In this document: positions 29,055 through 58,251 of the stretch, piece after piece | Numbering within the stretch: the stretch's first letter is position 1 | How the letters are laid out: each line of letters starts with the position of its first letter | Sequence record: OQ561750 | Origin: Escherichia phage LHE83 | Length of the DNA stretch: 64,000 nt | Reading direction: 5' to 3' (one strand) | Made by a program: the position numbers and the translations under genes | The notes under the pieces: generated by a model | The model's input: only the letters and a program-made list of their open reading frames with translations | Databases searched by the model: none | What the model was told of the DNA's origin: nothing

Positions 29055-29075
29055 AAGGGACTTCGGTCCCTTTTT
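29055..29075 (+). terminator. rho-independent terminator
   Basis: GGGAC-TTCG-GTCCC followed by TTTTT. Confidence 0.6.
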
Positions 29076-29133
29076 GGAGTATAATGATTCATCAACAAAC
29101 AAAAGACAATCACTCGTCTATAAAGGAAATGAA

Positions 29134-31845
29134 ATGCAAGAATTCTATTTGACAGTCGAACAAATCGGTGATAATATTCTCGAACGTTACATCGATAAAA
29201 ATGGTAACGAACGTAGTCGTGAAGTTCCATACAAGCCTACAATGTTTATGCATGCTAATCCAGAGCAAGCCGTAAAATACATTGATATCTATGGTAAGGG
29301 TTGTGTTAAGAAAGAATTCGATTCTATGCGTGATGCATCCCAATGGATGAAACGTATGGATGATATGGGTCTCGAAGCCCTGGGTATGGACGACTATAAA
29401 TTAGCCTATTTGTCTGATACCTATCGTAAAGAAATCAAATATGATTCTTCTAAGATTCGTATTGCTAACTTCGACATCGAGGTAACATCTCCTGATGGAT
29501 TCCCTGAACCAGCTCAGGCTAAACATCCTATCGATGCCATTACCCACTACGACTCGATTGACGATAAATTCTATGTATTCGACCTTTTAGTTTCGCCTTA
29601 TGGTACTGTCGAAGAGTGGTCGATTAAAATCGCTGAGAAACTCCAAGACGAAGGCGGTGACGAAGTTCCACAAGAAATCATTGACAAAATCGTTTATCTT
29701 CCGTTTAATTCTGAAGAAGAAATGATGCTTGAGTACTTGAATTTCTGGCAACAGAAAACTCCTGTGATTTTGACTGGATGGAACGTTGAGTCGTTTGACG
29801 TACCATACGTTTATAACCGTCTGAAAAATCTGTTCGGTGAGAACACTGCTAAGCGATTAAGCCCACATCGTAAAACTCGTGTTAAAGTTATCGAGAACAT
29901 GTACGGTGCTCGTGAAATCATTACATTGTTCGGTATCTCTGTTCTGGATTATATCGACCTGTATAAAAAATTCAGCTTTACCAACCAGCCTTCTTATTCT
30001 CTGGATTATGTTTCTGAATATGAATTGAAAGTAGGTAAGTTGAAATATGATGGCCCAATCTCCAAGTTACGTGAGACGAACCACCAACGATATATTTCCT
30101 ATAACATTATCGACGTATATCGTGTAGTGCAGATTGATATGAAGCGTCAGTTCATTCTTCTGAGTTTGGACATGGGTTATTATGCCAAGATGCAGATTCA
30201 GTCGGTGTTCAGCCCAATTAAGACTTGGGACGCTATTATCTTTAATAGCCTTAAAGAACAAGGCAAGGTAATTCCACAAGCTCGCTCACACGTGGTCCAA
30301 CCTTATCCTGGTGCTTTCGTTAAGGAACCGATTCCTAACGCTTACAAATATGTAATGAGTTTCGACCTTACATCTCTGTACCCGAGTATCATTCGACAAG
30401 TGAATATAAGCCCAGAGACCATCGCAGGGACATTCGCTAACGCACCGATACATGAATATATTGCCGGAACTGCTCAGCGTCCTAGCGACACCTACAGTTG
30501 CTCTCCTAACGGCATGATGTACTATAAAGACCGTGAAGGTGTGATTCCGACAGAAATCACCAAGGTATTCTTGCAGCGTAAAGAACATAAAGGTTACATG
30601 CTTGCAGCTCAACGTAATGGTGAGTTAATTAAAGAAGCATTGGAAAATCCTAATCTCTCAGTTGATAGTCCACTGGATATCGATTATCGTTTTGACTTCT
30701 CTGACGAAATCAAAGCCCAGATTAAAGCACTGTCAGCGCCTTCTTTAAGAGAAATGTTGAAGAAAGCCGAGCTCACTGAAGTTGCAGGTAACACTGCTCA
30801 GATTAACCGTAAGTTGCTTATCAACTCCCTTTATGGTGCACTTGGTAACGTATGGTTCCGTTACTATGACCTCAGGAACGCAACTGCAATCACATTGTTT
30901 GGTCAAATGGCCCTCCAATGGATTGAACGTAAGGTTAACGAATATCTGAATAGCGTGTGTAAGACTGAAAACCAGAAGTTCGTGCTCTACGGTGATACTG
31001 ACTCCATTTATGTTAAGGCAGATGCAATCATCAATAAAGTAGGCGAAGATAAATTCCGTGATACTAACCACTGGGTCGACTTCTTAGATAAATTTGCACG
31101 TGAACGTATGGAACCAGCTATTGATGCAGGCTTCCGTGAGATGTGCGAATACATGAACAACAAACAACACTTGATGTTCATGGACCGAGAAGCTATCGCA
31201 GGTCCTCCACTTGGTTCTAAAGGCCTTGGTGGATTCTGGACAGGCAAGAAACGTTATGCACTTAACGTTTGGGACATGGAAGGTACTCGTTATGCTGAAC
31301 CACACTTGAAAATCATGGGTCTCGAAACTCAGAAATCAAGTACACCTAAAGCAGTTCAGAAAGCTCTGAAGGAATGTATCCGTCGTATGCTTCAGGAAGG
31401 CGAGGCATCTTTGCAAGAATATTTCAAACAGTTTAATAAGGAATTTAACGAACTCGATTATGTAAGCATTGCAGCAGTATCCAGTGCTAACAACATCGAG
31501 AAATATAATGAAGGTGGATTCCCGGGTTCTAAATGTCCATACCACATCAAAGGTTGCTTAGCTTACATGCGTGCTTCTGCAGGTGATTTGACTATGCCTC
31601 GTATCGTTGATGGTGAAAAGGTATATGTACTGCCACTTAAAGAAGGCAACCCGTTTGGTGAAGCTTGTATGGCATGGCCGTCAGGTATTGAACTTCCGGT
31701 TCAGATTCGTGACCAAGTCCTCCGTTGGATGGACTACAACGTACTGTTCCAAAAGACCTTTATCAAACCTCTGACCGGTTTTACTGAGTCTGCTAAAATC
31801 GACTACGAGAAAAAAGCAACATTATTTGATATGTTCGACTTTTAA
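29134..31845 (+). CDS. 43: DNA polymerase gp43 (family B)
   Basis: Start at internal ATG (MQEFYLTVEQIGDN) after AAAGGAAATGAA RBS, giving 903 aa; exo motifs FDIEV and YNIIDV; pol motifs SLYPSI, KILINSLYGALG, YGDTDS; track start 29074 is TTG. Confidence 0.95.
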   Translation: MQEFYLTVEQIGDNILERYIDKNGNERSREVPYKPTMFMHANPEQAVKYIDIYGKGCVKKEFDSMRDASQWMKRMDDMGLEALGMDDYKLAYLSDTYRKEIKYDSSKIRIANFDIEVTSPDGFPEPAQAKHPIDAITHYDSIDDKFYVFDLLVSPYGTVEEWSIKIAEKLQDEGGDEVPQEIIDKIVYLPFNSEEEMMLEYLNFWQQKTPVILTGWNVESFDVPYVYNRLKNLFGENTAKRLSPHRKTRVKVIENMYGAREIITLFGISVLDYIDLYKKFSFTNQPSYSLDYVSEYELKVGKLKYDGPISKLRETNHQRYISYNIIDVYRVVQIDMKRQFILLSLDMGYYAKMQIQSVFSPIKTWDAIIFNSLKEQGKVIPQARSHVVQPYPGAFVKEPIPNAYKYVMSFDLTSLYPSIIRQVNISPETIAGTFANAPIHEYIAGTAQRPSDTYSCSPNGMMYYKDREGVIPTEITKVFLQRKEHKGYMLAAQRNGELIKEALENPNLSVDSPLDIDYRFDFSDEIKAQIKALSAPSLREMLKKAELTEVAGNTAQINRKLLINSLYGALGNVWFRYYDLRNATAITLFGQMALQWIERKVNEYLNSVCKTENQKFVLYGDTDSIYVKADAIINKVGEDKFRDTNHWVDFLDKFARERMEPAIDAGFREMCEYMNNKQHLMFMDREAIAGPPLGSKGLGGFWTGKKRYALNVWDMEGTRYAEPHLKIMGLETQKSSTPKAVQKALKECIRRMLQEGEASLQEYFKQFNKEFNELDYVSIAAVSSANNIEKYNEGGFPGSKCPYHIKGCLAYMRASAGDLTMPRIVDGEKVYVLPLKEGNPFGEACMAWPSGIELPVQIRDQVLRWMDYNVLFQKTFIKPLTGFTESAKIDYEKKATLFDMFDF

Positions 31846-31847
31846 GT

Positions 31848-31880
31848 GTTTACATACCACAAGGAACGTGGTAGTATCCT
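31848..31880 (+). promoter_or_regulatory. early promoter cassette
   Basis: GTTTAC...GTAGTATCC...CCTATCAAC; TACCAC/GTGGTA inverted repeat. Confidence 0.5.
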
Positions 31881-31907
31881 TCCTATCAACTACATGAGGA
31901 AATTACA

Positions 31908-32144
31908 ATGGAAGCTTTAATCGTTAGTGCTGGTGTTTTAGGATTCGGTTCTCTGGTTATTATGTTCATCGGTTACTTTTTACCATGGATTCTGGCTCTT
32001 CTGCGAGGCACTCGTAGTAATGTCGGAATTTTCTTCCTTAATCTCCTGTTAGGCTGGACGATGATTGGTTGGGTAGTGGCTTTAATCTGGGCTATCGTCG
32101 CTGAACGTAAATCAAACGCACAAATCATTATTGTTAAGCAATGA
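31908..32144 (+). CDS. imm: superinfection immunity protein Imm-like
   Basis: 78 aa, two transmembrane segments; FFLNLLLGWTMIGWVVALIWA resembles the Imm family signature; syntenic with T4 imm downstream of 43. Confidence 0.65.
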   Translation: MEALIVSAGVLGFGSLVIMFIGYFLPWILALLRGTRSNVGIFFLNLLLGWTMIGWVVALIWAIVAERKSNAQIIIVKQ

Positions 32145-32285
32145 AAATAATTATTTTATTTCTTATAATGACTGCCTTTACCATTTATTGGGCAGTGGCA
32201 ATTCCGCCAATGATTCCGACACTCATCATTGGATGGATTATTCTTATAGCACAAATTAAGTATAACTGTTTTAATTGAGGATATT

Positions 32286-32786
32286 ATGAAAAAGTTAATT
32301 ATCGCAATGAGTATGCTCCTATCAGGTTGCGCGGTCCAATATGGTGATACAGTTTCGGCTGATGAAGTTGGTAAAGCTCGTATCGCAGCTGAACAGAAAC
32401 AATTCGATGGCGAAATGAAATTCCGTGCAGGTTCTGGACTTGTGTACACCCGAGCTAATAATCAATGCGGTAATAACTGTGCAAAATATGCTCAACAAGA
32501 AATCGAATTCCAACGTGAACAAGAGTCCAAGCGTGAAGCGGTACTAGCCAAACACCAGGCAGAAATGAAGCGTCAAGATGATTTGTACAAAAAGCAGAAA
32601 CTGTATGCGATGTGCGTAAACCATATCAATCTACAGATTTCCATCCACGAGGCTCGTTATTACGAAATGCTCGAAACCGAGAGCTTCGGTAAAGCTCGTG
32701 ATTATAAGAAACAAATCGATAAGCTCAAGACCAAAGCACCGGCGGCAATAGAACAGTGTATTGAAATCGGTAAAGATAAGATTTAA
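32286..32786 (+). CDS. hypothetical lipoprotein
   Basis: Signal peptide with LSGC lipobox; charged helical remainder. Confidence 0.55.
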   Translation: MKKLIIAMSMLLSGCAVQYGDTVSADEVGKARIAAEQKQFDGEMKFRAGSGLVYTRANNQCGNNCAKYAQQEIEFQREQESKREAVLAKHQAEMKRQDDLYKKQKLYAMCVNHINLQISIHEARYYEMLETESFGKARDYKKQIDKLKTKAPAAIEQCIEIGKDKI

Positions 32787-32846
32787 GCAATACCAATTTA
32801 TTAAAAATAGTGTATAATGTACCTACATTCACTTGAGGAACAGATA

Positions 32847-34520
32847 ATGAAAAAGGTTGTTATTTTAGGCGCGGGTCTTGGCTCACGGTTGTATCCAATT
32901 ACCAACGAAATCCCGAAGGTACTGGTTAACTACAAACAACATACTGTATTAAAACATTTGTATGATTTGTATAGTAATCAATCAGATGAAATTATTCTGG
33001 TTATTCACAGCAAATTTAACGACCTCGTTAAAGGCTATATTAAATCCATTAACATGATTAATAGTGATAAGCCTAAATTCACTATTCGTAACGTTGATGT
33101 TGCCAATGGTTCGGCTCATGCTATCGATTGCATTGCCGAAGATATCATTGGGCACAATGTCTTGTTTAACTGGTGTGATATTATTCCTGAAGGTCATAAA
33201 GTTGAGTGGGATAACGACTACTGTTATACCTATGGGACCGACTGTCGTTTTACATTTGAAGAACCGTACTTGCGTGAAATTGGTACCGGTGGTGGCGTAG
33301 TTGGCTTGTATCAGGTGGCTAATTGGACAGGTTTCGACCGTTCTAATTATGGTGAAGACCTTGCTGACAACCTGGATTCAATGGTCCATTTGACTGAACG
33401 TAAGTTAGACTTTGTAGTTGATGTTGGTGACAAACTGAAACTGGCTAAGGCCCATGAAGATTCTGAAATTAACCGTGAATTTAATAAATTAGAGTTCACT
33501 GAGAATCTAGCTATTAAAGTACCTACAAACGAATTAGGTAAAGAAATCCAATCTAAAGAAATCAATTGGTACAATTCTATTGATTCTGAATTCGTTCCTA
33601 GCATTGTAGACTTTGCTCCAGGTGAATTCATTAAAATGGAACGTATCTTTGGTCGAACCATGGCAGATGCCTACCGGTTTATGTCTAAAGAAACTAAAGT
33701 CCTAATGGTTTATAAGGTTATTAGTGCATTACGTTCGTTCGGTGGAACTATCGATAATCCGTCCGATGAGCAATGGTATTCTGATGTTAAGAAAGAAGTA
33801 TTGGACAAGGTCCTTATTCGTAATGCTTCTATTGCCGGATTGATTGAAGGCTTTGCTCCACAGGGTATTACCCATGTTAACGACTTCAAGGTAGGCGACC
33901 CAGAAAAACTTCTTCGTCACGCCTTAGAAATTCTGTCTGAACATAAAGAACCGTACCAACTTATTCATGGCGACCCGCACTACAGTAATATTATGTTGTC
34001 GGACGAAGGTAATATTAAAATCATCGACCCACGTGGTTATTTTGGTAATAGTTCTAAAGGCCCTGCGATTTATGATGAAGCTAAGGTGCTTTATTCTATC
34101 GATGGTTATGACAAATTTAACTCTGACCCTCTATGGGGTGGCTTAACTCGTAACGGAACTCGTGTATTCGTTGATATTGAAAAGGTTATGCCTTTAGATG
34201 ATATTCCGATGTGTACATTTAAGCACAAGCTCTGGATTGCCGTTATTTGGATGGCATTGGCAGGTTACTTTAAAAATAACCCTCTGAAAGCTCTGGGCGC
34301 TTATTACAATGGGCTATATCAACTGAGTGTGCTGCTGAAGCGGCATCCTCGTAAGCGTAAGCTTATCACAGGTGAATTCGTTGATGAAGTTCGCGACCCT
34401 ATCACGGCTCAAATTATCACTCGTTGTCCTGATAAGTGGGTTTTGCTTGACCAGGAAACTGGTGTAAAATATAAACCTACAGGTTCTACCGAACTCCACA
34501 AACAATGGAAGAAAATTTAA
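32847..34520 (+). CDS. bifunctional nucleotidyltransferase / kinase (LicC- or MurU-like N-terminus, APH/choline-kinase-like C-terminus)
   Basis: ATG after GAGGA Shine-Dalgarno; N-terminal KVVILGAGLGSRLYPIT sugar-phosphate nucleotidyltransferase motif; C-terminal IHGDPHYSNIML...IIDPRGY kinase catalytic-loop pattern. Confidence 0.7.
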   Translation: MKKVVILGAGLGSRLYPITNEIPKVLVNYKQHTVLKHLYDLYSNQSDEIILVIHSKFNDLVKGYIKSINMINSDKPKFTIRNVDVANGSAHAIDCIAEDIIGHNVLFNWCDIIPEGHKVEWDNDYCYTYGTDCRFTFEEPYLREIGTGGGVVGLYQVANWTGFDRSNYGEDLADNLDSMVHLTERKLDFVVDVGDKLKLAKAHEDSEINREFNKLEFTENLAIKVPTNELGKEIQSKEINWYNSIDSEFVPSIVDFAPGEFIKMERIFGRTMADAYRFMSKETKVLMVYKVISALRSFGGTIDNPSDEQWYSDVKKEVLDKVLIRNASIAGLIEGFAPQGITHVNDFKVGDPEKLLRHALEILSEHKEPYQLIHGDPHYSNIMLSDEGNIKIIDPRGYFGNSSKGPAIYDEAKVLYSIDGYDKFNSDPLWGGLTRNGTRVFVDIEKVMPLDDIPMCTFKHKLWIAVIWMALAGYFKNNPLKALGAYYNGLYQLSVLLKRHPRKRKLITGEFVDEVRDPITAQIITRCPDKWVLLDQETGVKYKPTGSTELHKQWKKI

Positions 34521-34879
34521 TGCATCTGTGTTTTGATATCGATAATACCATTACTCACTGGCAAGATGACCGTGATTACGAAAACTTTAAACCGGACACC
34601 GAAATGGTGTCCATGATTAATAAGCTTTATGATGAAGGGTACGAGATTACCTTGTTCACTGCCCGTGGTATGACTTCATGCGGCCCGGGTCGAATCTTGG
34701 TTGAAGTAGTTCCTGCATTAGTTAAGAACCTTGAAAAGATTGGATTGAAATATCACAATCTGCTTACACATAAGCCGAGTTATACTTTTATCATCGATGA
34801 CCGAGCAATCCGTCCTGACCACTTTAAAGAAATGGTTCGTGAAGGAACTCTTGAAACCTATAAGGCATATCATCCGTGA
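34520..34879 (+). CDS. HAD-superfamily phosphatase
   Basis: TAATG coupling to the upstream gene; motif I FDIDNTIT (DxDxT) near the N-terminus; LFTARG motif II-like. Confidence 0.6.
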   Translation: MHLCFDIDNTITHWQDDRDYENFKPDTEMVSMINKLYDEGYEITLFTARGMTSCGPGRILVEVVPALVKNLEKIGLKYHNLLTHKPSYTFIIDDRAIRPDHFKEMVREGTLETYKAYHP

Positions 34880-35412
34880 AACCAAAAATCATTGTTATCG
34901 ACGGCCCGGATAATTCCGGGAAGTCTACTTTAATTGAATCACTTTTATCTGATAAGAAATATCGTCTTATTGATTTCCCTAAAAAGATTAATGGCAAATG
35001 CATTTCATTAGGGACCGATAATGACAAGGCTTTAGTCGAGACGTTGTATAAGTTTTTAGACCCTAATTTCGTTTACATCCTTGACCGTGGTTATCCAAGT
35101 AATATTGTTTACTCGGGATTCCTTCGCGGTGAAATGGACCCTTATGTAGAACTGGAAGATTGGAAAAGGTTTAAATCTGAATTCAATATTATTGAGGTTA
35201 TTTTAACCCGTAATCCACTGGATAAAGACTTTGAAGATGACCTTATTAAATTAACCAAAGATGAGTTCAACCTAACTATCCGGCAATATGAAACATGTTT
35301 TGAAAACGTGTTTAAAATCTTAAATCACGACGGCCATAATAACTTGCTTAACGTCGATATGGTAGAATTAAAACGTCTGAATGAATATATTGAAAATAAG
35401 GTGAATAAATGA
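34876..35412 (+). CDS. P-loop kinase (nucleoside/nucleotide-kinase-like)
   Basis: GTG start overlapping the upstream stop; KIIVIDGPDNSGKSTL Walker A resembles dNMP or small-molecule P-loop kinases. Confidence 0.55.
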   Translation: MKPKIIVIDGPDNSGKSTLIESLLSDKKYRLIDFPKKINGKCISLGTDNDKALVETLYKFLDPNFVYILDRGYPSNIVYSGFLRGEMDPYVELEDWKRFKSEFNIIEVILTRNPLDKDFEDDLIKLTKDEFNLTIRQYETCFENVFKILNHDGHNNLLNVDMVELKRLNEYIENKVNK

Positions 35413-36107
35413 AACACATTACCGCTGTTAGTTTTGAAAACGCGTTTAAGCAAATGAACGAAGAAATCCTGGAAGCTCCACAGTTTGCAGTTGATTCTCG
35501 TATCGGCCGTTGTTATGAAATTGGTTCTGCTTCGGTAGAAGTACTGGATGCAAGCACCTATAAATTCACCGACCCTCGTATTAATCGTATCAACTATGAT
35601 TATGCCGAATCTTTCTGGAAGTTTATGATTTCTGGTGGTACTGACGCCGCCGAAGCATTTAAGGAATACCCTAATGTTGCTAAGTTCATTGATAAGCCGA
35701 AAAGTGACGTATTGCCTGCAAACTTCAACACTTTCTATGGACCTAGAATTGTGGCCCAACTCCCAGCCTTACTTAAAGAGCTTAAAGAGAAGCCTAACTC
35801 AAGACGAGTTGTGTTCCAAATTCTCCAAGAACAAGACCAAGCCCTCCTTGATTCTGACGAATCCTTAGAATATCCATGTACTGATTCAGTGACATATTAT
35901 ATTCGTGATGGACGTCTTTATGCACATACCCATATGCGTTCACAGAACTGTGCTATTGTTATGCAGCTGGATTTCTATCTGCAGGGTAAACTGATGGCCT
36001 TTATTGCTGAACAGTGTGGTGTTGGTCTGGGTACGTATTCCCATACTATGGTTAGTGCACACGTATTTGAACGTGATTTTGACTACGTTCGAGGATTCCT
36101 GAAATGA
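35409..36107 (+). CDS. 42: dCMP hydroxymethylase (thymidylate-synthase fold)
   Basis: KPNSRRVVF, YPCTDSVTYYIRDG...HMRSQN and VSAHVFER align with T4 gp42 active-site segments from memory; syntenic position. Confidence 0.75.
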   Translation: MKHITAVSFENAFKQMNEEILEAPQFAVDSRIGRCYEIGSASVEVLDASTYKFTDPRINRINYDYAESFWKFMISGGTDAAEAFKEYPNVAKFIDKPKSDVLPANFNTFYGPRIVAQLPALLKELKEKPNSRRVVFQILQEQDQALLDSDESLEYPCTDSVTYYIRDGRLYAHTHMRSQNCAIVMQLDFYLQGKLMAFIAEQCGVGLGTYSHTMVSAHVFERDFDYVRGFLK

Positions 36108-36997
36108 GTTTGTTTATCGTTCCTATTTTCAGTATGCGTAGTTACGAAACAGGTGAATATGCCGTCCTTAAGGACGGTAATTTTCAACTCCATTTAAACC
36201 GTGCTTGCCCAGGTGATTATCTGGCTTATCCTAGAAATTCGAGCGATATCAAAGAATGCATTGAATTATTTCCTGAACTGAATTTTGTACCTCTTTGGTA
36301 TAAAGAAAATGCTTATGAAACTCGTAAACATTTTTGGTCTGAAAATGAGTTCGTTGTTGATTCGTTAATCGAATACTATGACTGCTCAGGATTGGTAACC
36401 GATATCACAGGTTATGATGGTGCTCATACCGTACAATTCAACTTTAACATTACAATGGACCCTGAAGTTCCTCGTTATTACATCGATGAGTTTATTGATA
36501 CCGACGTGGGTTCAGTTGAACGTTCGATTTATACCACAGTCCTGAATCAATGCCAGAAAGACGTCCTGGTGTCACGAGGTGCGTCCTCTGATAAGATTTT
36601 TGTAGACCAAAAGGTAATTAATCCGGCAGTAATTGAGCGTTACTCTGAAGGCCTAGCGCCTATTAAAATTGATGGTATTTTCCATCCATTCCGTATCTCT
36701 GATAAATGTTATCAATTCGAAAGAGTTGTAGACCAAGCTGCGGCTGAAGGTTCTCGCCTTTATATCACCGATCCGAATGATTCATTTAAGCGTGAAGACT
36801 ATCGTCCTGATGTAGAGATTATTAAATTCAAACCGAGTAAGGTTGAATATTATCAGATTCTGAAATCAAGACCTCATATCATTTATCATGAGAATCCCAG
36901 TTTAGTATTTCATCCTGGTCTAGCTGAATTCATTTATTTCGGTGCCCATATCCATTCTGAGCACGAAATGCCAAGTTATGAGGACGTGGTCCTTTAA
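36104..36997 (+). CDS. hypothetical protein in the beta-glucosyltransferase slot (putative DNA glycosyltransferase)
   Basis: ATGA-coupled to gene 42 and directly upstream of uvsX, where T4 carries beta-gt; no recognisable similarity to T4 beta-gt. Confidence 0.45.
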   Translation: MSLFIVPIFSMRSYETGEYAVLKDGNFQLHLNRACPGDYLAYPRNSSDIKECIELFPELNFVPLWYKENAYETRKHFWSENEFVVDSLIEYYDCSGLVTDITGYDGAHTVQFNFNITMDPEVPRYYIDEFIDTDVGSVERSIYTTVLNQCQKDVLVSRGASSDKIFVDQKVINPAVIERYSEGLAPIKIDGIFHPFRISDKCYQFERVVDQAAAEGSRLYITDPNDSFKREDYRPDVEIIKFKPSKVEYYQILKSRPHIIYHENPSLVFHPGLAEFIYFGAHIHSEHEMPSYEDVVL

Positions 36998-37074
36998 CGC
37001 TGTAAATGTGAAGTGATATAATTACCCTATCTTAAAACGTGAGTAAAATATAATGATGCCTATGGAAAAATATA

Positions 37075-38247
37075 ATGTCTGATTTAAAATCCCGTTTGAT
37101 TAAAGCTTCTACTTCTAAAATGACTGCCGACCTGACCAAATCTAAATTGTTTAATGGTCGTGACGAAGTTCCTACTCGTATCCCTATGCTGAATATTGCA
37201 TTAGGCGGTGCGTTGAATGCAGGCTTACAATCAGGTTTGACAATCTTTGCTGCTCCATCTAAACACTTTAAAACGTTGTTTGGACTTACCATGGTTGCGG
37301 CATATATGAAGAAATATCCAGACGCAATTTGTTTGTTCTACGACTCTGAGTTTGGTGCTTCAGAATCTTATTTCCGTTCGATGGGTGTTGATTTAGAACG
37401 TGTGGTTCATACACCAATCCAGTCAGTCGAACAGCTTAAAGTTGATATGACCAACCAATTAGAAGAAATTACTCGTGGCGAAAAGGTTATTATCTTTATC
37501 GACTCCATCGGTAACACTGCTTCTAAGAAAGAAACCGAAGATGCTTTGAACGAGAAAGTTGTAGGTGATATGACTCGTGCTAAATCACTGAAATCTCTGT
37601 TCCGTATCGTAACACCTTATCTGACCATCAAGGATATCCCTTGTGTAGCAATTAACCACACGGCTATGGAAATTGGTGGAATGTACCCTAAAGAGATTAT
37701 GGGTGGTGGTACTGGTATTCTGTACTCTGCTTCTACCGTGTTCTTTATCTCTAAACGTCAGGTTAAAGATGGTACTGAGCTCACTGGTTATGACTTCACA
37801 CTGAAGGCCGAGAAATCTCGTACGGTTAAAGAGAAATCAACGTTCCCGATTACAGTGAACTTCGAAGGTGGTATCGACCCATTCAGTGGATTGCTTGAAA
37901 TGGCTACTGATATTGGCTTTGTCGTGAAACCTAAAGCTGGCTGGTATAATCGTGCATTCCTTGACGAAACCACAGGCGAAATGGTTCAAGAAGAAAAAGC
38001 ATGGCGTGCTAAAGCTACTGATTGTGTTGAGTTCTGGGGACCACTGTTTAAACATGCTCCGTTCCGTGAAGCAATCGAGAATAAGTATAAGCTTGGTGCA
38101 ATTAATTCTATTAAAGAAGTTGACGATGCGGTTAATGACCTTATTAACTCTCGTGTCTCTAAGAACGTTGCTGTTAAATTAGGTGGTAATGCCCAAAGCG
38201 CCGCTGATATCGAAAACGATTTGGAAGAGATGGATTTAGATGACTGA
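37075..38247 (+). CDS. uvsX: RecA-like recombinase UvsX
   Basis: 390 aa; MSDLKSRLIKASTS...; Walker A APSKHFKT region; near-identical to T4 UvsX from memory. Confidence 0.9.
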   Translation: MSDLKSRLIKASTSKMTADLTKSKLFNGRDEVPTRIPMLNIALGGALNAGLQSGLTIFAAPSKHFKTLFGLTMVAAYMKKYPDAICLFYDSEFGASESYFRSMGVDLERVVHTPIQSVEQLKVDMTNQLEEITRGEKVIIFIDSIGNTASKKETEDALNEKVVGDMTRAKSLKSLFRIVTPYLTIKDIPCVAINHTAMEIGGMYPKEIMGGGTGILYSASTVFFISKRQVKDGTELTGYDFTLKAEKSRTVKEKSTFPITVNFEGGIDPFSGLLEMATDIGFVVKPKAGWYNRAFLDETTGEMVQEEKAWRAKATDCVEFWGPLFKHAPFREAIENKYKLGAINSIKEVDDAVNDLINSRVSKNVAVKLGGNAQSAADIENDLEEMDLDD

Positions 38248-53422: not shown

Positions 53423-55240
53423 ATGATTAAGAATGAAATTAAAGTACTGTCCGACATTGAACATATCAAAAAACGTAGTGGGATGTATATTGGCTCAAGT
53501 GCTAATGAAGCTCACGGTCGATTCCTGTTTGGTAATTTTACACAGGTAAACTATGTTCCTGGACTGGTTAAATTAATTGATGAAATCATTGATAACTCTG
53601 TCGATGAAGCTATTCGTACCAATTTTAAATTCGCAAATAAAATTGATGTTCAAATTAAGAATAACCAGGTTTCAGTTTCTGATAATGGTCGTGGTATTCC
53701 ACAAGCAATGGTCACCGACCAAAATGGTGAACAGATTCCAGGTCCTGTAGCTGCATGGACTATTCCAAAGGCAGGTGGTAACTTTGGAGATGACGCTGAG
53801 CGTAAGACAGGCGGCATGAATGGTGTCGGTAGTAGTTTAACTAATATCTTCTCTGTTTTGTTCACCGGCATCACCTCTGATGGTGAGAATGAGATTACTG
53901 TTAACTGTTCAAACGGAATGGAAAACAAAGGTTGGTCTACTAAGAAATCTAAAGGTAAGGGTACTTCGGTTATATTCACCCCAGACTTTAATCATTTCGA
54001 AGAAAATAGCCTGTCACAAATTTATCTGGATATTACATTAGACCGATTGCAAACTCTGGCCGTAGTTTATCCTGATATTCAATTTACTTTTAATGGTAAA
54101 AAAGTAGATGGCAACTTTAAAAAGTATGCTAAGCAATTTGGTGAAGACTTTGTAATCCAAGAAACCGATAATGTTTCGATGGCATTTACTCCTTCTCCGG
54201 ATGGATTCCGTCAACTGACTTATGTAAACAATATCCACACCAAGAATGGTGGCCACCACGTTGAATGTGTATTCGATGATATTTGTGAACACCTTCTGCC
54301 AGGCATTAAAAAGAAATACCGTGGAATTGAAGTAACTAAAGCTCGTGTTAAAGAATGCCTTACGATGGTGATGTTCATTCGTGATATGAGCAACATGCGT
54401 TTTGATTCACAGACTAAAGAACGTTTGACCTCTCCTTTTGGTGAGATTCGCAATCATATCCAAATTGATGCTAAGAAAATTGCTCAAGCCATTCTTAAAG
54501 TTGATGGGTTGATTATGCCTATCGTTGAAGCTGCTTTAGCACGTAAATTAGCAGCTGAAAAGGCTGCCGAAACTAAAGCCGCTAAGAAAGCTTCTAAAGC
54601 CAAGGTCCATAAGCATATTAAAGCTAACCTATACGGCAAAGATGCTGATACAACCCTGTTCCTAACCGAAGGTGATTCCGCTATGGGTCCTTTCATTGAA
54701 GTTCGTAATAAAGACCTTCAAGGTGGTTACCCATTGCGTGGTAAGGTTATGAATACCTGGGGAATGACAGCAACAGATATCATGAAGAACAAGGAACTAT
54801 TTGATATCTGTGCAATCACTGGATTGGTTATTGGTGAACCCGCAGATAAAACCAACTATCGTAATATTGCTATTATGACCGATGCCGATGTGGATGGTAC
54901 TGGTTCGATTTATCCATCATTGCTAGCCTTCTTTAGTCAATGGCCCGAATTGTTCGAACAAGGCCGAGTACGGTTCTGTAAAACTCCGGTGATTATTGCT
55001 CAGGTTGGTAAAGAACAGGAATGGTTCTATGATGTGCCTAGTTATACCAAAGCTAAGGACTCTCTACCAAAACACTCCATTCGTTATATCAAAGGACTGG
55101 GTTCTCTTGAGAAGGCTGAATACCGTCGAATGATTCAAGACCCTAAATTTGATGTGGTTCAATTACCTGAAGATTGGAAAGAACAGTTCGAAATGCTCCT
55201 TGGTAATGACCCACAACTCCGTAAGGCCTGGATGTCGTAA
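53423..55240 (+). CDS. 39: DNA topoisomerase II large subunit gp39, full length (GyrB-like; unsplit 39+60)
   Basis: 605 aa continuous ORF; GHKL ATPase motifs (IDNSVDEA, GMNGVGSS) and TOPRIM (EGDSA); C-terminal part corresponds to T4 gp60. Confidence 0.9.
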   Translation: MIKNEIKVLSDIEHIKKRSGMYIGSSANEAHGRFLFGNFTQVNYVPGLVKLIDEIIDNSVDEAIRTNFKFANKIDVQIKNNQVSVSDNGRGIPQAMVTDQNGEQIPGPVAAWTIPKAGGNFGDDAERKTGGMNGVGSSLTNIFSVLFTGITSDGENEITVNCSNGMENKGWSTKKSKGKGTSVIFTPDFNHFEENSLSQIYLDITLDRLQTLAVVYPDIQFTFNGKKVDGNFKKYAKQFGEDFVIQETDNVSMAFTPSPDGFRQLTYVNNIHTKNGGHHVECVFDDICEHLLPGIKKKYRGIEVTKARVKECLTMVMFIRDMSNMRFDSQTKERLTSPFGEIRNHIQIDAKKIAQAILKVDGLIMPIVEAALARKLAAEKAAETKAAKKASKAKVHKHIKANLYGKDADTTLFLTEGDSAMGPFIEVRNKDLQGGYPLRGKVMNTWGMTATDIMKNKELFDICAITGLVIGEPADKTNYRNIAIMTDADVDGTGSIYPSLLAFFSQWPELFEQGRVRFCKTPVIIAQVGKEQEWFYDVPSYTKAKDSLPKHSIRYIKGLGSLEKAEYRRMIQDPKFDVVQLPEDWKEQFEMLLGNDPQLRKAWMS

Positions 55241-55284
55241 TAAATATGTATGGTACTAATTGGTGCCATACAAAAGGAGACTTT

Positions 55285-55446
55285 ATGAGAAAGTACTGGG
55301 TTACGCTCGTCACCGGTGAATACGGTTATATCTGGACTGATACTAGACCTCAGTTTGCAGAATACGTGACTATTACAGTCGAGACATGGGACGGCGAAGT
55401 TTACCAAACCCGCGGACAAGTCTATAAGGTCGATTCAAGTAACTAA
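55285..55446 (+). CDS. hypothetical small protein
   Basis: Internal ATG after AAGGAG Shine-Dalgarno of track ORF 55246. Confidence 0.45.
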   Translation: MRKYWVTLVTGEYGYIWTDTRPQFAEYVTITVETWDGEVYQTRGQVYKVDSSN

Positions 55447-55447
55447 T

Positions 55448-55467
55448 AAGGGCCTTCGGGCCCTTTT
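55448..55467 (+). terminator. rho-independent terminator
   Basis: AAGGGCC-TTCG-GGCCCTT followed by TT. Confidence 0.55.
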
Positions 55468-55471
55468 CGGG

Positions 55472-55500
55472 GTTTACAACTGATTAAAAGTATGATACGA
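55472..55500 (+). promoter_or_regulatory. early promoter
   Basis: GTTTAC then downstream TATGATACGAT. Confidence 0.45.
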
Positions 55501-55519
55501 TTCTCTAAGAGGTGAGAAT

Positions 55520-55843
55520 ATGATTATGCAAGATAACAGTATAGTGAACACTGACAACCTGGCTCTATCCTTTATGGAAGCAGCCATTCGTAACTGTAAG
55601 GACGAAGGAGTAGTGACTACAAGCGGTAAGGGACTTGAATACCTTAAGGCTGTAAAATCTATTGCCTTAAAGATTAAAGATAACCAGGCGCTCTCTCCTG
55701 TTGTCCAGGAAAAGGTTTTAGAGATAATGTATCGCCACAGAGAGCACAAAAGTACAATAGGTTCTATGAGAAGAATTCTGGCTGAACTAGGTTCTACCAG
55801 AGAATATGTTCAACATGAGGTAGTTAAAAATGACAAACTTTAA
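55520..55843 (+). CDS. hypothetical protein
   Basis: ORF track. Confidence 0.5.
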   Translation: MIMQDNSIVNTDNLALSFMEAAIRNCKDEGVVTTSGKGLEYLKAVKSIALKIKDNQALSPVVQEKVLEIMYRHREHKSTIGSMRRILAELGSTREYVQHEVVKNDKL

Positions 55844-56033
55844 AGTGAATATTGATTTGTTTGATAAAGCTGTTCATAAAGAATTCCGGTTAATCCAGCG
55901 ATTTTTTGATATCAATGCAGCTGAGGATTTTAAAGAACGCTTTAAAGAAATCAGATATAAAATACTCAACGACATCGCTACTAAGGACGAGCTCCTTGAA
56001 GTGGCAAATATTTTCAAACGTAACCTGAATTGA
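55830..56033 (+). CDS. hypothetical protein
   Basis: ORF track; overlaps the upstream 3' end. Confidence 0.5.
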   Translation: MTNFKVNIDLFDKAVHKEFRLIQRFFDINAAEDFKERFKEIRYKILNDIATKDELLEVANIFKRNLN

Positions 56034-56040
56034 GAAAAAT

Positions 56041-58251
56041 ATGATTATTGAAACCGAAAAAGAACAAATCATTGGTAATGGTGCTAAGTCCACAGGCTTT
56101 ACTATCCAGGCATCGCCTAAGGTCTTTAAAATTTTGTCATCAGACCTTTATAGTAATAAAGTACGTGCTGTAGTACGTGAACTAATTACCAACATGATTG
56201 ATGCCCATATTCTGAATGGTAATAAAGAACGTTGGAAAGTACAGGTCCCTGGTAAACTGGACCCTCGTTTCGTGTGTCGTGATTTCGGTCCGGGTATGAG
56301 TGATTTCCAAATTCGTGGTGATGAAAACGAAACAGGTTTGTACAACTCTTATTTCGCATCATCCAAAACGGCTTCTAATGATTTCATCGGCGGCTTTGGC
56401 CTTGGTTCAAAATCTCCGTTCAGTTATACCGAAACGTTTAATATCACCTCATGGCACAATGGCGAAGTTCGCGGTTATGTAGCATATATGGATGGTGATG
56501 GCCCGCAGATTAAACCTACTTTCGTAGAACCTATGCAGCCAGGTGATAAAACAGGTATCGAAATCACGGTTCCTGTTGATGAAGAAGATTTCCGTAAGTT
56601 TGAAACTGAAGTTCGTTATATCATGCGGCCTTTCATTGGTCTTGGTGATGTAGACGGTGTTGAAGTTGATTATTTCCCTGAATTTGACGATTACCATCCT
56701 GTAACCACTACAAATTATGGCAGCTTCGAACGTTCAGGACTTTATGCAGTTTATGGTGGTATTGTTTATCCATTGGATTCCGCCTATAATAAAGGCACGT
56801 GGATGCGTACTCGCCATGATGTAGTTTATATTAAGTTCCCTATGGGTTCACTGGATATTGCTCCTTCTCGTGAAGTGTTGTCTCTTGATAAACGTACGAT
56901 GGAAAATATTGCAACCCGTATCGAAGCACTGGACGCAGTGGTCTTTAAAAACGATACACAGGAATGGGTTGAATCTGATAATCCACGCCATGTTTATCGT
57001 GACCTTTCTAACCTTGGTTACAGTGCTCGTGACTATCTTACCAAAAAAGGTGGAACTAGCCTGTTTACTACAGAAAAATTGACATATGAGAAATTATACC
57101 AGCGTTATACCCTTCAAAACGACCTTATTAATTTAGGTGTGGTTTACGAAGTCGTTTCAGACCCACGTTTGAAACGAATTAAGTCAAGTGGTAATACTTC
57201 TTCGGTAGCAGGACTTAGTAATTTATTAGGCATTAATAAGAAAGAAATCCATGTTGTTTATGATGATGAAAAAGGTCGTGTGCCATTAGTTCGAGGTCTT
57301 TGGGCTCTGGCAATGGACAACAGTGCTTCGGCTAAGAAAATTGTTAAAGAGAACAATATTCCTAAATACGGAACTGACCTTATTTTTGTCGACCCAAATT
57401 CAATGTTGCAAATGCAACAACTTGAAAAGGTTAAAGAACTTTTTAAAGGTGACACAATTCATTTTTATAAAGTCTCTGAACTGAATAAAATTGTTAAGCC
57501 ATGGATTCCGGTTACTGTCCGTTCATCAGAACCGCGTCCTAAAACACCGAGTGCTTATCGTTGGTTCATTAAAGACGGGCGCTGGCAACAAGAGACCATG
57601 TATTTGACTGCTGCCGAAGCAGAAGAAATTACAGGTTATGTTCTGTTTGGCAGTCGTTCTGATATTATGGGAATGGATGAAGCTTATGGTATCTTTGACA
57701 TCAATACCATTACCATGTGTCGTATGGCTAATTTGATTGGTGCTACCGAATTCCATATCATTCGCCCTCAGATTGCCAAAAAGATTAAAAAGTTAGGCCA
57801 ATGCGAATGCTTGATGGAAGCTACATTAGAAGCTTATGCTGAAGCCTTAGACGCGGTAGATGTTGATGACTACCTTGGTAGCAATACTCGAGCTCGGTAT
57901 TACCTTGAAATCATTGCTAAGTTCCCTCAGCTTAATTTCATGACCAAGTATTTCAGTGATAAGCCGGTAACTGAAGCATATACTCGTCTGAGTAATTTCT
58001 ATGATATATTCCGTTATATGAATTTCCATGGTTATATCACTGATGATAAGCTTTCCGTTATCAAGAAAATTTGTAACAATACTTTTTTTAAGTTGACTGA
58101 TAATGCTTCAAGCAACAATGATAAAATGACTGTACAGTTTGAATCTGATTACCATTTAGTTTCGGACTACATGTATCGTCGTGGAACATCCATTACCGAG
58201 GCTTCTGTAGCTCAAATTGTTAAATTCATGAAAGCCGTGGAAGCGGCTTAA
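56041..58251 (+). CDS. rIIA: rIIA protein (GHKL-ATPase-like membrane-associated protein)
   Basis: 736 aa; MIIETEKE...VRELITNMIDAH, FVCRDFGPGMSDF, GGFGLGSKSPFSY as T4 rIIA. Confidence 0.9.
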   Translation: MIIETEKEQIIGNGAKSTGFTIQASPKVFKILSSDLYSNKVRAVVRELITNMIDAHILNGNKERWKVQVPGKLDPRFVCRDFGPGMSDFQIRGDENETGLYNSYFASSKTASNDFIGGFGLGSKSPFSYTETFNITSWHNGEVRGYVAYMDGDGPQIKPTFVEPMQPGDKTGIEITVPVDEEDFRKFETEVRYIMRPFIGLGDVDGVEVDYFPEFDDYHPVTTTNYGSFERSGLYAVYGGIVYPLDSAYNKGTWMRTRHDVVYIKFPMGSLDIAPSREVLSLDKRTMENIATRIEALDAVVFKNDTQEWVESDNPRHVYRDLSNLGYSARDYLTKKGGTSLFTTEKLTYEKLYQRYTLQNDLINLGVVYEVVSDPRLKRIKSSGNTSSVAGLSNLLGINKKEIHVVYDDEKGRVPLVRGLWALAMDNSASAKKIVKENNIPKYGTDLIFVDPNSMLQMQQLEKVKELFKGDTIHFYKVSELNKIVKPWIPVTVRSSEPRPKTPSAYRWFIKDGRWQQETMYLTAAEAEEITGYVLFGSRSDIMGMDEAYGIFDINTITMCRMANLIGATEFHIIRPQIAKKIKKLGQCECLMEATLEAYAEALDAVDVDDYLGSNTRARYYLEIIAKFPQLNFMTKYFSDKPVTEAYTRLSNFYDIFRYMNFHGYITDDKLSVIKKICNNTFFKLTDNASSNNDKMTVQFESDYHLVSDYMYRRGTSITEASVAQIVKFMKAVEAA

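Follow-up and report, generated by a model that had tools for sequence, protein, structure and literature searches.

What do two small enzymes, encoded back to back beside a sugar-activation gene, contribute to a T4-like phage? This question is raised by the 64,000-nucleotide stretch of Escherichia phage LHE83 (sequence record OQ561750; hereafter the window, to whose first letter all positions refer), which belongs to a Dhakavirus, i.e. a T4-like coliphage of the Straboviridae (Tevenvirinae). An earlier reading made from the letters alone (the sequence-only reading) had placed a small HAD phosphatase and a P-loop kinase between positions 34520 and 35412, and had compared their surroundings with multi-step pathways of base hypermodification. 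Both open reading frames (ORFs) were confirmed in the sequence at these positions, on the + strand. They are not chance ORFs, as judged from their PHROG matches (E 5e-41 for the phosphatase and 9e-40 for the kinase), and tblastn over sequenced phage records detected the phosphatase in 378 records and the kinase in 344. The two ORFs probably lie second and third in an early operon of five genes, which equips the phage to replace cytosine by 5-O-arabinosyl-5-hydroxycytosine. The hypermodification proposal was therefore well placed: the cluster is the arabinosyl-5-hydroxycytosine cluster described in 2025-2026 from phages RB69, HY126 and DLP3, and represents nothing out of the ordinary within an established pathway (published 2018-2026) of which Dhakaviruses have already been named as carriers.

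The arabinosyl-5-hydroxycytosine cluster of the window

Arabinose in the DNA of RB69 was described by Thomas et al. 2018 (PMC6024577), who implicated a module located between the polymerase gene and uvsX, and a survey from 2021 (PMC8056088) presumed that RB69p045 (a thymidylate-kinase homolog) and RB69p051 (with a phosphatase domain) were participants. According to Lee et al. 2026 (PMC13326640), the modified base is 5-hydroxycytosine (5hoC), not hydroxymethylcytosine (hmC), and the thymidylate synthase (TS) homologs RB69 gp48 and DLP3 gp80 make 5-hydroxy-dCMP with flavin and O2. The same authors showed that an Asn at residue 169 (ThyA numbering) identifies these flavin-dependent 5-hydroxy-dCMP synthases, and that many Straboviridae, Dhakaviruses included, share the cluster in syntenic order. 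In the portion of PMC13326640 that cites He et al. 2026, AfhE of HY126 is described as an arabinose-5-phosphate kinase (yielding the 1,5-bisphosphate) combined with a UDP-arabinose pyrophosphorylase, and AfhF as a Mg-dependent HAD phosphatase that converts arabinose-1,5-bisphosphate into arabinose-1-phosphate. Arabinosyl-5hoC has been demonstrated by others in the DNA of RB69 and HY126.

The window contains two of the features that mark Afh-type clusters, namely (i) a TS homolog with Asn169, and (ii) coupled genes of the AfhE type, the AfhF type and a first arabinosyltransferase; the HY126 locus consists of the same genes. The five genes occupy positions 32847-36997, and stop and start codons overlap at each of the four junctions (in order TAATG, GTGA, ATGA and ATGA), which points to translational coupling of all five. 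A scan of positions 31800-37200 for promoters and terminators performed no better than on shuffled sequence, and the boundaries of the operon are therefore drawn from the gene overlaps only.

The nature of the base follows from the TS homolog. This protein matched the PDB entries 9iqu/9iqc (E 1.5e-125, about 80% identity), was 79% identical to RB69 gp48 and, when aligned to E. coli ThyA, displayed Cys146, Asn169 and Asp177. RefSeq annotates it as 'thymidylate synthase', and the sequence-only reading had taken it for the hydroxymethylase gene 42. That assignment had to be abandoned, since both the identity to RB69 gp48 and Asn169 place the protein with the 5-hydroxy-dCMP synthases. The modified nucleotide would consequently be 5-hydroxy-dCMP rather than hydroxymethyl-dCMP (hm-dCMP), and Dhakavirus DNA is predicted to contain 5hoC derivatives rather than hmC.

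The other neighbours were described correctly as far as the sugar-activation gene is concerned. Its product is composed of an N-terminal sugar-1-phosphate nucleotidyltransferase and a C-terminal sugar kinase resembling APH/choline kinases (Pfam NTP_transferase, 2.5e-8; APH, 9e-6; phrog_4098, E 5e-269), and it is 42-44% identical over its full length to HY126 AfhE and RB69 gp53:52. The last gene encodes a candidate arabinosyltransferase (297 aa) with 67% identity to RB69 gp47:46 and a match to phrog_3891 (E 8e-159).

In the proposed pathway, the kinase domain of the AfhE-like protein would place a phosphate on C1 of host arabinose-5-phosphate, the HAD enzyme would strip the 5-phosphate from the resulting arabinose-1,5-bisphosphate by a Mg-dependent aspartyl-phosphate mechanism, and the N-terminal domain of the AfhE-like protein would uridylylate arabinose-1-phosphate to UDP-arabinofuranose. 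In the base branch, the TS homolog would hydroxylate dCMP to 5-hydroxy-dCMP. The 178-aa kinase, together with the dNMP kinase encoded by gene 1, would convert this to the diphosphate, after which host NDP kinase and the polymerase of the phage would bring the modified nucleotide into DNA, where the downstream glycosyltransferase would add arabinose to 5hoC. We infer that the DNA of Dhakaviruses carries the same sugar as that of RB69 and HY126.

The sugar branch follows the same chemical logic as the GmhA/HldE/GmhB route to ADP-heptose, which proceeds through an isomerase, a kinase that forms a 1,n-bisphosphate, a small HAD enzyme by which the distal phosphate is split off, and a nucleotidyltransferase that activates the 1-phosphate; a further likeness is the fusion of kinase and transferase in one protein. 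The phage pathway differs in its use of a pentofuranose and of UDP, in the delivery of the product onto DNA rather than lipopolysaccharide, and in its kinase domain, which is of the APH/choline-kinase type and not of the ribokinase type.

The HAD phosphatase and its probable substrate

Two starts are possible for the phosphatase ORF, ATG 34505 (giving 124 aa) and ATG 34520 (119 aa). Comparison with the initiator Met of HY126 (MHRVENMLNLCFD; MHRVEN...), of JS98-like Dhakaviruses (MSHRVENKPHLCFD; second Met) and of Marfa-like phages (MNLCFD) revealed that the homologous start is the one at 34520, which is also used in the RefSeq record of phage QL01, and the longer version was dropped. Directly after this Met both the window and QL01 have a deletion of 8 codons, which leaves motif I unaffected (window 34520-34545). 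In the JS98-like Dhakaviruses (L004, L006 and L007) the start is followed by eight extra codons (SHRVENKP), and the N-terminus resembles that of HY126.

The DxDxT motif noticed by the sequence-only reading near the N-terminus is present as D6-I-D8-N-T10 (numbering of the 119-aa protein) and is kept in all homologs aligned over this region. The remaining HAD motifs, II (T47), III (K85) and IV (D93-D94), do not vary across the 11 sequences aligned, among them the Vibrio structure 1xpj and the HY126 protein. The phosphatase matched PDB entry 9iqw with E 2.8e-53 (residues 3-124 of the 124-aa version); this entry, deposited as 'capsule biosynthesis protein', is identical in sequence (100%) to Mosigvirus proteins, and the identity to RB69 gp51/9iqw amounts to 62% over the whole protein. 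The scores against the curated models TIGR01689 (E 1.6e-14; 53.9 bits, cut-off 162) and Pfam Hydrolase_3 (14.7, cut-off 20.9) fall below the thresholds, as these models describe bacterial proteins from which the phage clade has diverged too far. The RefSeq name 'phosphoheptose isomerase' is a misnomer.

Like AfhF of HY126, RB69 gp51 and DLP3 gp81, the phosphatase is a minimal, capless HAD protein (approx. 120-128 aa in this group) with identical catalytic motifs, and its gene occupies the same place, directly downstream of an AfhE-type gene. This order is a general one: the gene always follows an AfhE-type gene, immediately so in most Straboviridae loci. The window protein differs from the AfhF-type enzymes in being 8-9 residues shorter at the N-terminus, and in being accompanied by an AfhE of another clade, without a SIS isomerase homolog in the window.

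As the enzyme is an AfhF ortholog, its substrate is very probably arabinose-1,5-bisphosphate, which would lose its 5-phosphate to give arabinose-1-phosphate. The sequence-only reading had suggested the production of a free sugar from a sugar-phosphate; in such a scheme free arabinose would be released from arabinose-5-phosphate and then phosphorylated at C1 by the kinase domain of AfhE. Table 1 of PMC13326640 indeed labels RB69 gp51 and DLP3 gp81 'dephosphorylates Araf5p to Ara', and 5-phosphatases acting on a mono- or a bisphosphate are indistinguishable by sequence alone. However, the text of that paper, where it deals with the HY126 enzymes, has AfhE making the bisphosphate and AfhF reported, after He et al. 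2026, to yield arabinose-1-phosphate. Moreover, the closest characterized fold relatives, the GmhB-type heptose-1,7-bisphosphate 7-phosphatases cited in PMC13326640, act on bisphosphates, and free arabinose would be exposed to loss through host catabolism. The placement of the enzyme in the sugar branch stands, but an intermediate in the form of free arabinose appears unlikely.

The kinase and its probable place in the base branch

The kinase starts with GTG and carries the Walker A motif IVIDGPDNSGKST, which resembles that of thymidylate kinases (TMKs), as the sequence-only reading had noted; the other TMK-type motifs are also present. The protein is an ortholog of the gene products listed as 'nucleotide kinase' in Table 1 of PMC13326640 (RB69 gp45, DLP3 gp78 and RL38J1 gp214) and belongs to the same gene cluster, with 37% identity to RB69 gp45. 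Lee et al. go no further than this label for RB69 gp45. The Dhakavirus gene is located between the genes of the phosphatase and the TS homolog, whereas its Mosigvirus counterpart follows the glycosyltransferase gene.

The family is labelled thymidylate kinase in phrog_761, and RefSeq uses the same name. An AlphaFold (AF2) model based on an alignment of 57 homologs (pLDDT 93.7) revealed the fold of P-loop nucleoside monophosphate (NMP) kinases, closest to TMK. Residues could be mapped one-to-one onto E. coli Tmk (4tmk; sequence checked against published residue numbers): the P-loop Lys K16 on K16, D12 on E12 (the ligand of the 3'-OH), D70-R71 on D99-R100 of the DRH motif (DR(Y/H) in the family), and Y79 on Y108. 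These catalytic residues are 95-100% conserved in the 57 homologs. The identity to TMKs such as E. coli Tmk and the vaccinia enzyme (2v54) is only 12-19%. The LID is several residues shorter than that of Tmk, and in the model residues 36-47 form a low-confidence hairpin in place of the thymine-binding helix. From its sequence, the protein looks like an active deoxynucleotide kinase with a base specificity other than that of Tmk.

The kinase belongs to a small family: when 1.84 billion representatives were searched exhaustively with a profile, only 482 relatives were obtained at E <= 1e-3 and 46 at E <= 1e-10. This search was used in place of a word-indexed protein search, which had returned only 9 homologs. 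A kinase homolog was not found in the 5-methylcytosine phage Xp12, which had been chosen as a control with purely pre-replicative modification.

Several metagenomic members of the family are fusion proteins (P0041, P0042, P0044, P0048, P0052, P0057, P0058, P0061, P0065 and P0072). In eight homologs of 314-357 aa, the kinase domain is followed by an MBD4-like helix-hairpin-helix (HhH) DNA glycosylase domain with the catalytic motif GxGKYxxDS, an arrangement that fits the repair of deaminated modified cytosine; such phage kinase-glycosylase fusions appear not to have been described previously. P0065 contains a dCMP-type TS domain (Cys146, Asp177), and one homolog a domain of the UDG superfamily.

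Within the Straboviridae, the kinase gene was part of the cluster in all 15 loci inspected, either after the phosphatase gene or after the glycosyltransferase gene. Kinase and phosphatase occur equally often among phages of the same hosts (Escherichia, 176 records each; Acinetobacter, 57; Klebsiella, 25), and these matching counts suggest that the kinase is confined to phages with a 5hoC cluster. Since the distribution of the kinase mirrors that of the phosphatase, it cannot show which branch of the pathway the kinase serves. More informative are eight distant IMG/VR loci that have no arabinose genes. Each of them has a TS homolog at a distance of 0-4.5 kb from the kinase gene (less than 1 kb in six, 1.3 kb and 4.5 kb in the other two), and all eight TS partners display Cys146 and Asp177, the signature of dCMP-type enzymes. 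Two of these loci also encode a MazG-like dNTP pyrophosphatase, so that dNTPase, TS homolog and kinase form an arrangement equivalent to T4 gp56/gp42/gp1.

Two compact modules of unrelated uncultured phages look like independent pathways of cytosine modification: L021 (7118-10742) comprises a MazG-like dNTPase, a 120-aa ORF, the kinase, a putative glycosyltransferase and a dCMP-type TS homolog, and L019 (7540-9406) a MazG-like dNTPase, the kinase and a TS homolog.

In Rhizobium phage RL38J1, which uses a hexose and not arabinose, a similarly annotated kinase adjoins the 5-hydroxy-dCMP synthase (PMC13326640, Table 1). On the strength of the distant homologs beside dCMP-type TS genes, the P0065 fusion and RL38J1, we assign the kinase to the base branch, where it would be an enzyme dedicated to C5-modified dCMP. 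That 5-hydroxy-dCMP is its actual substrate seems to us an evenly balanced proposition. The role would be that of the T4 gene 1 dNMP kinase (1dek), which acts on hm-dCMP in T4 and on 5-hydroxy-dCMP in RB69; the difference is that Dhakavirus QL01, whose genome is near-identical, has a separate gene 1 elsewhere besides the cluster kinase. The sequence-only reading had proposed phosphorylation of hm-dCMP in parallel with gene 1. A role on a modified dCMP is favoured and gene 1 is present in QL01, but the nucleotide would be 5-hydroxy-dCMP, not hm-dCMP.

Several points weigh against the pathway outlined above and the part given in it to the kinase. The gene 1 homolog RB69 gp159 already converts 5-hydroxy-dCMP to the diphosphate, and gp48 with gp159 was enough for incorporation of 5hoC in E. 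coli (PMC13326640); given this activity and the gene 1 of QL01, a second kinase for the same nucleotide looks redundant. The helix of E. coli Tmk that bears F74 (thymine stacking) and R78 (contact with O4) has no alignable equivalent in the kinase, whose base specificity is for that reason unreadable from sequence. The protein also scores below the cut-offs for TMKs and cytidylate kinases (CMKs), namely 15.1 against 27 for PF02223, 19.1 against 83.25 for TIGR00041 and 20.5 against 135.55 for cmk, which is a further difference from the TMKs. On the sugar side, tblastn of the 64-kb window did not find a homolog of the SIS arabinose-5-phosphate isomerase (RB69 gp55; best E 7.9), and the AfhE of the window falls into the clade of isomerase-less phages, whose AfhE proteins share only 43-49% identity with those of isomerase-carrying phages. 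Both findings make it less certain here than in Mosigvirus which sugar is used. Finally, no DNA composition of a Dhakavirus was found in the accessible literature.

Could the kinase instead be a general-purpose enzyme, a thymidylate or NMP kinase that boosts the supply of dTTP, or of the UTP consumed by UDP-arabinose synthesis? Its fold, its motifs and the label of phrog_761 would agree with this. The missed TMK and CMK thresholds and the lack of a counterpart of the thymine-contacting F74 and R78 argue against it, as do the apparent confinement to 5hoC-cluster phages, judged by the hit counts matching those of the phosphatase, and the dCMP-type TS partner in nine of nine cases of distant homologs; in addition, dTMP is already served by gene 1 and host enzymes. 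We regard a general role as unlikely. It is even harder to credit that the kinase acts after glycosylation, which would mean that the first arabinose is attached to 5-hydroxy-dCMP and that the bulky arabinosyl nucleotide, beyond the capacity of gene 1, is then phosphorylated; the glucosylation of T4 DNA is post-replicative, which counts against such an order. This scheme would explain the retention of a second kinase beside gene 1, and the kinase gene adjoins those of the TS homolog and the first glycosyltransferase in Straboviridae, in L021 and, according to PMC13326640, in RL38J1. The experiments in that paper do not separate arabinosylation of the mononucleotide from that of DNA, and single glycosyltransferases were inactive in them on 5hoC DNA. 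On the other hand, later arabinoses are added on DNA (PMC13326640), and the kinase-TS pairs of L019 and L020 have no glycosyltransferase among the surrounding ORFs read. Marginally less probable again is the version in which the kinase is the sole enzyme for arabinosyl-dCMP and the polymerase incorporates a glycosylated dCTP analogue; it would likewise account for the kinase being kept beside gene 1 and, if true, would provide the first example of a DNA glycosylation that precedes replication.

The sequence-only reading had also considered action on modified DNA. The kinase would then phosphorylate a base hydroxyl, like the 5-hydroxymethyldeoxyuridine DNA kinases (5-HMUDKs) of phages M6, ViI and SP10, which are small P-loop kinases co-located with TS homologs (PMC5889632), and the fusion of some homologs to an HhH glycosylase-fold domain is superficially reminiscent of SP10 gp186. 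However, M6 gp54, the N-terminal part of SP10 gp186 (gp186N) and SP10 gp218 match the family profile at the P-loop only (HMM positions 3-32, 4-12 bits) and lack the DR motif, so kinship with the verified 5-HMUDKs was rejected. Nor is the fused HhH domain an aGPT-pyrophosphorylase of the SP10 gp186 kind, since it proved to be MBD4-like (E 1e-18), a glycosylase domain that retains the catalytic Asp. The TS partners all have Asp177 and are of the dCMP type, not the dUMP type, and a UDP-sugar glycosyltransferase needs no phosphorylated base. This is the least probable of the alternatives, and phosphorylation of 5-hydroxy-dCMP remains the role that we prefer.

The gene neighbourhood and the isomerase-less version of the cluster

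The five genes are listed in Table 1. They are preceded by the genes for DNA polymerase and imm and by a small lipoprotein-like ORF, and are followed by uvsX, gp40 and gp41. The 4.2-kb stretch around the phosphatase and kinase genes is 99.3-99.5% identical to the corresponding DNA of Salmonella phage ABTNLS3 and Escherichia phages E33, PSD9 and QL01, and 95-98% identical to that of Bp7, IME08 and other members of the genus Dhakavirus.

Table 1. Genes of the putative arabinosyl-5-hydroxycytosine operon in the window
Feature	Position	Strand	Basis of assignment
AfhE-like bifunctional enzyme, 557 aa	32847..34520	+	Pfam, PHROG, identity to HY126 AfhE / RB69 gp53:52
Capless HAD phosphatase, 119 aa, AfhF / RB69 gp51 ortholog	34520..34879	+	PDB 9iqw match, HAD motifs
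Thymidylate-kinase-fold P-loop NMP kinase, 178 aa, GTG start, RB69 gp45 / DLP3 gp78 ortholog	34876..35412	+	
Thymidylate-synthase homolog, 5-hydroxy-dCMP synthase type ('gene 42' of the sequence-only reading)	35409..36107	+	PDB 9iqu/9iqc, RB69 gp48
Putative first DNA arabinosyltransferase, RB69 gp47:46 ortholog	36104..36997	+	identity, phrog_3891

The AfhE-like gene most probably starts at ATG 32847 and not at 32817, where the mechanically defined ORF begins: the sequence GAGGA is located 7 nt ahead of ATG 32847, and the start in the RefSeq record of QL01 is identical. The mechanical start, ATG 32817, overlaps an extended -10-like sequence (TGTATAAT; window 32790-32850), at which the scan for consensus promoters made no call.

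Further components of the RB69 system were missing from the window. A homolog of the U32-like RB69 gp50 was not found within the 64 kb, nor was one of the second arabinosyltransferase (RB69 gp3), either between gp39 and rIIA (53423-58251), the interval that corresponds by synteny, or elsewhere in the window. The absence of a gp3 homolog predicts that Dhakavirus DNA would be mono- rather than di-arabinosylated.

Among sequenced phages the SIS isomerase was detected in 276 records, compared with 378 for the phosphatase. The AfhE proteins of the isomerase-less phages (the window, the Marfa-like loci and L013) group closely in one clade, with 72-81% mutual identity. Two loci are instructive in this respect: L013 and L014 have similar identities to the other cluster proteins of the window and differ in the presence of the isomerase and in the type of AfhE. 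That they differ in exactly these two traits suggests a module swap, coupled to dependence on the host enzymes KdsD/GutQ. These observations cover positions 29074-37000 of the window and loci L010-L018. The simplest reading of the isomerase-less version is that arabinose-5-phosphate is provided by host KdsD/GutQ and that the base is mono-arabinosylated, although the sugar in these phages could conceivably be a pentose other than arabinose. Phages of the Dhakavirus and Marfa types may, in the absence of their own isomerase, depend on KdsD/GutQ of the host.

The main value of these results lies in the correction of annotations: the Dhakavirus genes named 'phosphoheptose isomerase', 'thymidylate kinase' and 'thymidylate synthase' or 'gene 42' are parts of the arabinosyl-5-hydroxycytosine pathway. 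This pathway governs the evasion of restriction enzymes and CRISPR by these coliphages, which are candidates for therapeutic use, and determines which type IV systems target them.

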